A stretch of DNA of 63,685 nucleotides, the filler included, from Collodictyon triciliatum (lineage: Eukaryota): assembly GCA_043381765.1 (NCBI GenBank). It is 13 parts of 13 records of this genome, joined end to end, with 100 filler letters (N's around TTAATTAATTAA, not from the genome) between each part and the next. Parts side by side here need not be neighbours in the genome. Positions count along the whole stretch, not along the records: positions 51,382 to 56,425 come from JBHJMP010005538.1; 12 more parts are not named here. One strand, written 5' to 3'. The notes beneath the pieces were generated by a model. That model worked only from the letters and a program-made list of their open reading frames with translations, ran no database searches and had not been told where the DNA came from. Made by a program: the position numbers and the translations under genes. Shown in pieces: positions 52,910 to 54,794 of this stretch. The first letter of the stretch is position 1. Each line of letters opens with the position of its first letter.

Positions 52910-54794
52910 GGGTTAGGTGTGTGCATTTTTTGAAGGATAAAAAGAGCTTTGTTGAGTATATTTTTATCGCTGTTATAGTCCCTCGTCAAGAATGCAGTTT
53001 GTTTGCTTTCCAAGTGATTACATTCTTTACATGTGAGACATCTATGCACTTTTTTTTTTAACTTTCCTTTCGGTTTCATATATTCCAGTTCTTTTTCGCA
53101 GTTGCAACAAATCTTGGAGGGTTTTAATCCATTTACAATAACTATTTCAAAACGTTTGGATAGTATTTTTTTTCCGTAATACTCTTCTGATTGTTGCCAT
53201 AAAATGCTTCATCGGACATTTTCTGCTCCAGTCCCCATACGCCAGTACAACATCCTTGCCAAAATGTCTTTTTGATGCTGTCCATAAACAACTCTTCACT
53301 TCTTTTTGTATTAACATACTGTCTCCATCTCATCTTTCGAAAAGTTACTTGTTCATAAAATCTGGAAAATTTATCTGGTATCTTGATTTCATAGATACAT
53401 ATTTTCGATTTTTTTTTTCATAATCGACCGCGCATGAATTATGTTTACTCAGTTATATCTCTAAATCGATTAAAGACACTCTTGATGTCTCAAACTGCTG
53501 ATTTTCTTCAAAATTTATGGCAACAAAAGAAACTGCACTTTGTAAATTTGTTGTCGTGCATATCCCTGGATAAGTGTACTTTTCTTTTCTAGTGCATGAG
53601 TATTTTGTGATTTTCAAGAGATTTGCTATCATGTCTTGTTTGGTGAGCCGTGCAACGTAATTTCTTACCTGTCTCATCCATCATATAAACCAAATTAAAC
53701 TTGCCTGCGTCCACTCCAACTATTATTATTTTCCCTAATAAAGATAGCTGCTCTGCGGAAAGTTCATCTATATAAACATAATCTTGGGTTTTTTTATTTG
53801 GATTTTGAATTTGAAATACCTTTCTTTTCAAACAATAATGACACCGCCAAGCCGTCTGTTTGTATCATGTATATAAAATTGTAGTCTCATTGATGAAAGA
53901 CTCTCTTCTTCATTTCAAAGAACTTATCCCATAGGGTCTCTTTGCATCCTGATATATTCTTCAGTAATGACTTTCCAGATGATACCAATAGACCTATCAA
54001 ACATGCATTATCTAGAGTAATATGACATGGTACATAATTAGCTCTTATAAAGATTGGTTGAAACAGTTTGGCTCCAATGTCCCCAAAAAATGCGATTCAT
54101 GTAAATCAGACATGGAGTGTACTTCTTTGGATTGACTTTGATGTCATATTCGATACCATTTACAACATCGCTGGGAATGATAGGATGCAGATATATTACA
54201 GTCCATCCTTTATATTGTTCCAATATTTCGACATTCTTGAAGATGGCCTTTTATATATCTTTCGTAACTATCCTTTTTAACAGCTTCCGTAATATTCTCA
54301 TCTTCAGGAACTGTTTGATTTATAAAGCGCAGTAACCTCTTTACAAAATGCTCCTTAATGTTGTTACGATAAGCTGTTAACACTTGCTTCGCCAAGTGCG
54401 GTAATACATGAGACGGTCCAACCAACGGAAAGCGTTCTTCTTGGGACAAAAGGAATCGGAAATCATAGAGATAAAAAGTCATCATGTCTTTACTCATTTA
54501 TGGTTGTTTTTTTTTTTTTAACTTGTGGAGCTATCCTGTGAAACTATTCCGACTGTCTTTGAAACGTACAAAAAACCTTTCATCGATTGTTGGGAGTTGT
54601 TGTGATTTCAATATGTAACATCTTGCAAACAGATAAGTGTCGGTAACCAAATTATGACACAATAAAACCGTATTGTTGGTTTTGTCATAGTCATATGCAT
54701 TCTTTACAATCAACTTTAGAGATGTTTTCACATTTCGATAGTGTGGTTTTACAGACTTTAGATTCTCAAACTCAAGACGTTTTCTTTTCTTCAT
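52910..54794 (-). pseudogene. Fanzor1 (TnpB-like RuvC nuclease), copy 2; full span (~1.9 kb, >600 codons) but multiply frameshifted
   Basis: MKKRKR (NLS-like)..VKTSLKLIV; YRNNIKEHFVKRLLRFIN; IVGVDAGK; GDWS; CCNC..CKEC; TRDYNSDKNI; collinear with copy 1; intronless. Confidence 0.9.

Follow-up and report, generated by a model that had tools for sequence, protein, structure and literature searches.

A full-span Fanzor1 pseudogene and an intact relative

The window analysed here, a 63,685-nt stretch of DNA from the eukaryote Collodictyon triciliatum, carries on its minus strand a full-span Fanzor1 pseudogene (copy 2; 52855–54794, with its ATG at 54794–54792 and its stop at 52857–52855), delimited by motifs, tblastn and frameshift-aware alignment, and a second, 5'-truncated Fanzor1 pseudogene (copy 1; 26401–27767). 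Both were compared with P0001, an intact public protein of 648 amino acids (aa) that was found by searching with a 222-aa open stretch of copy 1 (26571–27239); P0001 was the sole match among 606 longer candidates, with 65% identity to this open reading frame (ORF) of copy 1 and an E-value of 1.7e-76. A tblastn search with P0001 covers residues 1–642 over 54794–52864 of copy 2, in six frame-switching pieces with a combined E-value of 9e-140, a similarity that we judge to be far beyond chance. The original prediction, made from the DNA sequence, had described a gene spanning the full protein, which this coverage bears out; it had placed the gene at 52910–54794, where the upper bound coincides with the ATG but the lower bound falls about 55 nt short of the stop codon.

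The motifs on which that prediction rested are all present in minus-strand, stop-to-stop ORF fragments of copy 2: MKKRKR at the ATG, YRNNIKEHFVKRLLRFIN, IVGVDAGK, GDWS, CCNC...CKEC and TRDYNSDKNI. The first six residues, MKKRKR, are the same in copy 2 and P0001, and resemble a nuclear localization signal (NLS) by sequence alone. In a frameshift-aware alignment with P0001, copy 2 shows 11 frameshifts and three in-frame stops, with identity at 380 of 638 aligned positions (60%). It has six extra codons in all, with no insertion longer than a few codons and none of intron size, in agreement with the intronless gene that had been proposed.

Both the sequence and the modelled fold of P0001 assign the copies to Fanzor1, a relative of TnpB and Cas12, as had been predicted. 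In a sequence search of the PDB, the copy 1 ORF matches SpuFz1 (E = 3.7e-5), PpFz1 (6.8e-5) and GtFz1 (0.058), and P0001 matches GtFz1 (2.1e-28), PpFz1 (2.7e-24) and SpuFz1 (3.7e-23) over both its N-terminal and its RuvC halves; the remaining rows for P0001, two myoglobins at E = 0.38–0.62, are noise. P0001 was modelled with AlphaFold2 from an alignment of 46 relatives (pLDDT 86, pTM 0.84). The model has its best PDB fold matches in SpuFz (E = 9e-27, template modelling (TM) scores of 0.73/0.77), then PpFz and GtFz, with TM scores of about 0.6–0.79 across the solved Fanzor1 set and of 0.73–0.79 for SpuFz1. The best fold match outside Fanzor1 is Cas12X (TMq 0.33), and scores against Fanzor2, TnpB and Cas12f lie at 0.20–0.35. 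The fold comparison with SpuFz1 and TnpB that had been suggested as a check thus favours SpuFz when run on P0001 (TnpB, 0.20).

Fanzor-type RuvC residues

In a 46-sequence alignment of P0001 and its relatives, 12 columns are invariant, including D364 (GVDPGK), G521 (GDWS), E555 (VNEF), S559, R603, D604 and N610. Copy 2 retains the RuvC-I aspartate of IVGVDAGK (minus-strand codon 53709–53711; P0001 D364, aligning via copy 1 with SpuFz1 D383), the GDWS motif (53225–53236, minus strand), whose glycine corresponds to G521, and the RuvC-III aspartate of TRDYNS (minus-strand codon 52978–52980; D604). All four zinc-finger cysteines, CCNC...CKEC, are kept upstream of the latter. By contrast, copy 2 reads VNGL where copy 1 has VDEF: a glycine codon (53128–53130, minus strand) replaces the catalytic glutamate (E555 in the VNEF of P0001, E541 in SpuFz1), and T558 has become proline. 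The earlier statement that this copy is dead, with VDEF changed to VNGL, is therefore correct, given this substitution together with the 11 frameshifts and three stops. In the match of copy 1 to the chain of maltose-binding protein-fused SpuFz1, the corresponding Asp and Glu of the copy pair with residues 777 and 935, both offset by 394 from D383 and E541; D383, E541 and D606 are described as the metal (Mg2+)-binding residues of SpuFz1 (Saito et al. 2023, PMC10432273).

A hallmark reported for Fanzors is an inert proline or glycine at the canonical RuvC-II position, with an alternative glutamate about 45 residues downstream (Jiang et al. 2023, PMC10530073). P0001 and 45 of 45 relatives have an invariant glutamate 34 residues past GDWS; with GDWS taken from the literature as the canonical site, this arrangement appears to fit the rearranged RuvC-II of Fanzors. 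The Fanzor1 motif given by Bao and Jurka (2013, PMC3627910), D-X(125,275)-[TS][TS]-X-X-C4 zinc finger-X(5,50)-RD, can be traced through P0001 as D364...T558 S559...C562/C565/C587/C590...R603 D604, with spacings of 194 and 13 residues. Both copies keep its D, S, four cysteines and RD; at T558, copy 2 has proline and copy 1 has no aligned codon.

Copy 1 and the decay of both genes

The original prediction had referred to a second copy, and this is copy 1, in which tblastn with P0001 covers residues 179–616 over 26440–27767. It lacks the first 170–178 codons and shows three frameshifts, two stops and 266 of 447 residues identical to P0001 in frameshift-aware alignment, while keeping the D, GDWS, E, four Cys and RD. 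Its 3' tail (26277–26400, minus strand) extends to a sharp boundary marked by TAGAAGGG at 26277. The DNA of the two copies is 83% identical over ~1.5 kb (52783–54269 versus 26277–27778). Across 438 shared codons, dN is 0.169 and dS 0.221; because the resulting dN/dS is 0.77 (95% bootstrap range 0.53–1.08), most of the divergence between the copies accumulated in the absence of purifying selection. Both copies are pseudogenes, and neither is able to make an active protein. The suggestion that an active consensus could be rebuilt with the help of copy 1 is weak: since copy 1 lacks the first 170–178 codons, across which copy 2 alone carries 2–4 frameshifts and a stop, a two-copy consensus would not work as stated.

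Eighteen sequencing runs were compared (word shares were small, 0.05–0.12) and the contigs of four runs were aligned. A 151-nt contig from run X2 agrees with 54029–54179 throughout, with neither a mismatch nor a gap; it runs over the frameshift at 54088, which is therefore real rather than an assembly error. At or close to four of the frameshift sites of copy 2 (53171, 53261, 54085 and 54271), some contigs from X5 and X11 have indels whose length compensates the shift; these four lesions are therefore private to copy 2.

The carrier element

The window consists of unrelated scaffolds of ~5 kb placed one after another (pieces of 4929–5056 nt, roughly in falling order of length), most of which have microsatellites at their ends. 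They are joined by 100-nt linkers with stops in all six frames (N44 + TTAATTAATTAA + N44), and 24 of the 26 N runs are 44 nt long, in 12 pairs flanking TTAATTAATTAA. The linkers lie at 5060–5159, 10216–10315, 15370–15469, 20524–20623, 25674–25773, 30820–30919, 35968–36067, 40997–41096, 46140–46239, 51282–51381, 56426–56525 and 61565–61664. Because pieces on either side of a linker are not genomic neighbours, statements on context are limited to ~5 kb for each copy (copy 2, 51382–56425, 5044 nt; copy 1, 25774–30819), repeats and 'inverted repeats' that span a linker are layout artefacts, and context-based claims on the window should be discounted.

Similarity between the two copies breaks off abruptly 72 nt after the stop of copy 2, and the DNA farther out is unrelated. 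On the plus strand the shared sequence starts with TAGAAGGG at 52783 and at 26277, and this boundary is taken as the right end of an element that carries the gene. In copy 2, the gene is thus followed by a 72-nt non-coding tail in common with copy 1 (52783–52854, minus strand). On its other side, a part of ~1.4 kb before the ATG (54795–56217, minus strand) holds no recognisable ORF and is bridged to the gene by contigs. The outer ~500 nt of this part recur, inverted, at 50696–51215 and in part at 28329–28525; the former is a third, gene-less upstream-end fragment (plus strand) on another scaffold, which itself ends at 51281, and the latter is an upstream-end remnant (minus strand) beside copy 1, where ~1.8 kb of copy 2 (54269–56090) is missing.

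At 85–99+% likeness, 510 contigs of run X5 and 525 of run X11 align to 52600–56300; their depth is high over ~52848–56071 and lower on either side, and some of them bridge the gene and the upstream part. Two freshwater metagenomes hold a few near-identical contigs of 151 nt. These alignments describe a multi-copy, diverged repeat family of ~3.4 kb in two organisms. Given the two gene copies and the end fragment, the 510 and 525 diverged contigs and the unrelated flanks, the element is interpreted as mobile as well as multi-copy. Both junctions have TA before GAAGGG, which is compatible with a TA target and proves nothing. The inverted repeat 50701–51215/55716–56217 was considered as a terminal inverted repeat (TIR) and rejected, its arms lying on different scaffolds.

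Three further observations concern the element and its borders. Contigs of X5 and X11 join 54829/54830 to 55009/55011, and depth dips over 54830–55010: other copies lack ~180 nt just before the Fanzor ATG, and either this stretch was inserted in some copies only or a deletion variant exists. On two different scaffolds, at 5182–5423 and 28084–28325, there is an unrelated 242-nt repeat whose copies are 91% identical; the one beside copy 1 stops exactly at the start of the upstream remnant, and the repeat is probably another mobile element. Just past the right end, outside the shared element, lies a 333-aa open frame (51527–52528, plus strand) with a high content of S, P, K and N. Neither Pfam nor the Atlas returned a match for it; it may represent a disordered exon or have arisen by chance.

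Candidate omegaRNA and proposed mechanism

In Fanzor systems, the sequence that flanks the omegaRNA on its 3' side serves as the guide, and Fanzor1 ribonucleoproteins cut DNA next to a target-adjacent motif (TAM; CATA for SpuFz1, TTAAN for GtFz1). In copy 2, the 3' 228 nt (52783–53010), comprising the last ~150 nt of the ORF and the 72-nt tail, fold with z = -3.17 (0 of 200 shuffles fold as well) into four or five predicted hairpins, and are a candidate omegaRNA scaffold. The z-score, the sharp right end and a compensatory base pair are leads for an omegaRNA, not evidence of RNA.

Taken together, it is very likely that the window holds two neutrally decaying copies, on unrelated ~5-kb scaffolds, of a ~3.4-kb mobile element with a Fanzor1 gene whose ancestor encoded an omegaRNA-guided nuclease. 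The ancestral product would have been a RuvC DNA endonuclease of ~648 aa guided by an omegaRNA, with a basic NLS-like stretch at its N-terminus, REC and WED lobes and a C4 zinc finger. Its RuvC site would have had the rearranged Fanzor form, with an Asp in GVD(A/P)GK, an inert Gly in GDWS, a Glu in V(D/N)EF and an Asp in RD. By analogy with SpuFz1 and GtFz1, the guide RNA would have been transcribed from the 3' end of the ORF and the 72-nt tail; the scaffold would have ended at the right end (52783 or 26277), and the flanking DNA would have been read as the guide. The omegaRNA, TAM-dependent cleavage, a role in transposon maintenance and the way in which the element moved are points that we infer.

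Several results weigh against this interpretation. The fold evidence is for P0001 and not for the broken copies, and the local Pfam search returns nothing beyond sub-threshold Cas12f1-like_TNB matches for the fragments and P0001 (E = 0.0027–0.16). Only 1 of 41 predicted pairs in the candidate scaffold shows a compensatory change, in a comparison of just two sequences, and Rfam has no match to the whole window at the gathering threshold and none to 52500–53400 at E ≤ 1. As to the element, contig depth does not equal copy number, and the left end is fuzzy, at about 56200–56290. Within ~5 kb of context per copy, no transposase domain was found in 6 + 12 flanking ORFs and no target-site duplication was found; the absence of a nearby transposase had been pointed out before, and is true within the single 5044-nt scaffold of copy 2 (51382–56425). 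When the right end was compared in inverted orientation with the upstream DNA, the top scores were 16–19, against shuffle means of 16–20, and no TIR was found. Because no transposase, TIR or target-site duplication was detected, the carrier is not assignable to an element type.

Relation to known Fanzors and giant-virus proteins

The original prediction had also supposed an apparently uncharacterised family, a claim that does not survive the matches to solved Fanzor1 proteins, the number of homologues and the DUF8286 clusters described below. A HMMER search of 1.84 billion cluster representatives gave 3147 at E ≤ 1e-3, 1703 at ≤ 1e-10 and 537 at ≤ 1e-30. The Atlas clusters nearest to P0001 (score 0.99) belong to Pfam PF26935 (DUF8286), are named 'transposase' and are 92–100% viral, mostly Nucleocytoviricota, on the basis of few labelled members; PF26935 is also precomputed on P0001. 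Among other full-length representatives, the closest shares 48% identity with P0001, and a 291-aa fragment shares 82%. The copies are thus a real but ordinary relic and no new family; judged by these identities, the narrow subfamily around P0001 alone is thinly sampled. Among 184 candidate stretches from metagenome contigs there was one relative locus (L001, 21% identity). A literature search found no paper on DUF8286, nor, judging from titles and abstract openings, any on Fanzor pseudogenes; the supplementary tables of Fanzor surveys may already list the subfamily or its host.

Fanzor1 proteins are reported from fungi, protists, arthropods, plants and giant viruses (Saito 2023, PMC10432273). 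One survey describes 3655 Fanzors in metazoans, fungi, algae and viruses, and links four Fanzor1 families to hAT, Tc1/mariner, Helitron and other elements (Jiang 2023, PMC10530073). Fanzor1 families are described in Mayetiola and Hydra (Bao and Jurka 2013, PMC3627910), and an integrated giant virus of Chlamydomonas is reported to hold Fanzor1 elements, including forms that consist of the gene plus the right end only (10.1101/2024.09.03.611062).

The solved Fanzor1 proteins, SpuFz1 (8gkh, 9ceu–9cez), PpFz1 (9cf0–9cf3) and GtFz1 (9cer–9cet), have, over the full length, the domain order and the WED/REC/RuvC/NUC fold of P0001 (TM 0.63–0.79), a similar size (~620–650 aa), and in common with it the active-site Asp/Glu/Asp, GDWS, the TS-x-x-C4 zinc finger and RD. 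However, the identity in structural alignment is just 18–21%, and the copies differ from all of them in being pseudogenes. For the element SPu-1, 33-bp TIRs and TA duplications are described (PMC3627910), whereas the carrier element here has no detectable TIR. The giant-virus DUF8286 'transposase' proteins (PF26935) are nearest to P0001 by language-model features rather than by alignment (0.99; 228–231 of 256 shared) and are of like length (618–656 aa), but their clusters are labelled viral, whereas the copies here sit in multi-copy eukaryotic repeat DNA. Fanzor2, TnpB and Cas12f are described as having a RuvC and zinc-ribbon core and the OMEGA logic in common with Fanzor1 (PMC10530073, PMC10432273). 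Their fold match to P0001 is far weaker (Fanzor2 9b0l, TMq 0.21; ISDra2 TnpB 8h1j, 0.20; Cas12f, 0.21–0.24), these targets are much shorter (362–466), and no TnpA of the IS607 or IS200/605 type was seen in the scanned ORFs.

Alternative explanations

The viral make-up of the nearest Atlas clusters raises the question of whether, instead of belonging to a cellular transposon family, the copies are pieces of a giant virus (Nucleocytoviricota) that became endogenous, or of an element delivered by such viruses. Fanzor1 elements common to integrated giant viruses and the host genome have been reported (10.1101/2024.09.03.611062), and Bao and Jurka (PMC3627910) argue for viral spread and a possibly viral copy in Hydra. 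Nevertheless, the scanned ORFs of both 5-kb scaffolds contain no viral hallmark domain, a scan of viral contigs found 0 relatives of P0001 among 36 candidate stretches, the Atlas taxa depend on few labelled members, and hundreds of diverged contigs in two organisms point to a dispersed repeat; this origin is improbable. Viral delivery followed by cellular spread would also be compatible with the decaying mobile element that we favour. Relics of a Fanzor1 lineage that is still active and high in copy number, with an affinity to giant viruses and carried in a freshwater eukaryote by a TIR-less element of ~3.4 kb, are an unlikely extension of this interpretation.

Frameshifts in short, unplaced scaffolds bounded by microsatellites could reflect a noisy assembly of a gene that is intact in the organism, and the compensating indels of X5 and X11 at or near 53171, 53261, 54085 and 54271 might be read in this way. 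These indels, however, occur in contigs that are 85–95% alike and point to other copies; moreover, the three in-frame stops and the Glu-to-Gly change are not indels, short-read contigs of X2 and X1 match across the frameshift at 54088 without a gap, and dN/dS is near 1. For the lesions covered by independent contigs assembly error is excluded, and for the gene as a whole we give it hardly any credence. Just as little probability falls to reuse of the locus, for example as a small-RNA source or a regulatory element, with persistence for that reason: the 3' region does fold better than shuffles (z -3.17) and, between the copies, conservation of the non-coding tail equals that of the coding sequence, yet the shared stretch is ~83% identical throughout, with no island of extra conservation, and dN/dS is near neutral. 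Decay of two copies of a mobile Fanzor1 element accordingly remains the preferred reading.

Other features of the window

Elsewhere in the window, an uninterrupted ORF of ~690 aa (13294–15369, plus strand) contains at least eight near-identical WD40 repeats (Pfam WD40, E = 1e-84); its DNA is a 135-nt tandem array (13947–15191) with units 79–87% alike, which suggests a repeat protein that expanded recently. An intronless 2OG-Fe(II) oxygenase ORF (DIOX_N + 2OG-FeII_Oxy; 3558–4604, minus strand) has a best match of 67% identity, and its best named relatives are from oomycetes (47–54%) and bacteria (~50%). A leucine-rich repeat protein ORF of 430 aa lies at 6788–8080 (minus strand), and a tandem array of eight units of ~125 nt at 8113–9100. 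GC content reaches 52% in 22001–24000, against ~37% elsewhere; at 23026–23934, long open frames (223–302 aa) overlap one another on both strands and in several frames; they appear to be of low complexity, with much Ala, Pro, Arg and Ser. An exon-like match to the ATP synthase alpha/beta nucleotide-binding domain lies at 38928–39470 (minus strand), and a 461-aa ORF with no Pfam family at 41097–42481 (minus strand).

Significance

Fanzor1 is an established family, with thousands of members catalogued, solved structures and reported use in genome editing (PMC10530073, PMC10432273), and with both copies dead the finding matters little as it stands. Its value is modest and threefold: a thinly sampled Fanzor1 subfamily gains an intact 648-aa relative with a high-confidence model, the multi-copy carrier with its sharp right end is a place to seek the junction between omegaRNA and guide, and the make-up of the window from unrelated scaffolds warns against arguments from context. 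Should the lineage still be active, intact copies elsewhere in the genome, or P0001, would provide a compact RNA-guided nuclease that works and that comes from a thinly sampled subfamily, with no more than 48% identity to any other full-length representative, and the 1.4-kb upstream part of the element would have no known counterpart. For any functional test, P0001 is the natural intact relative.

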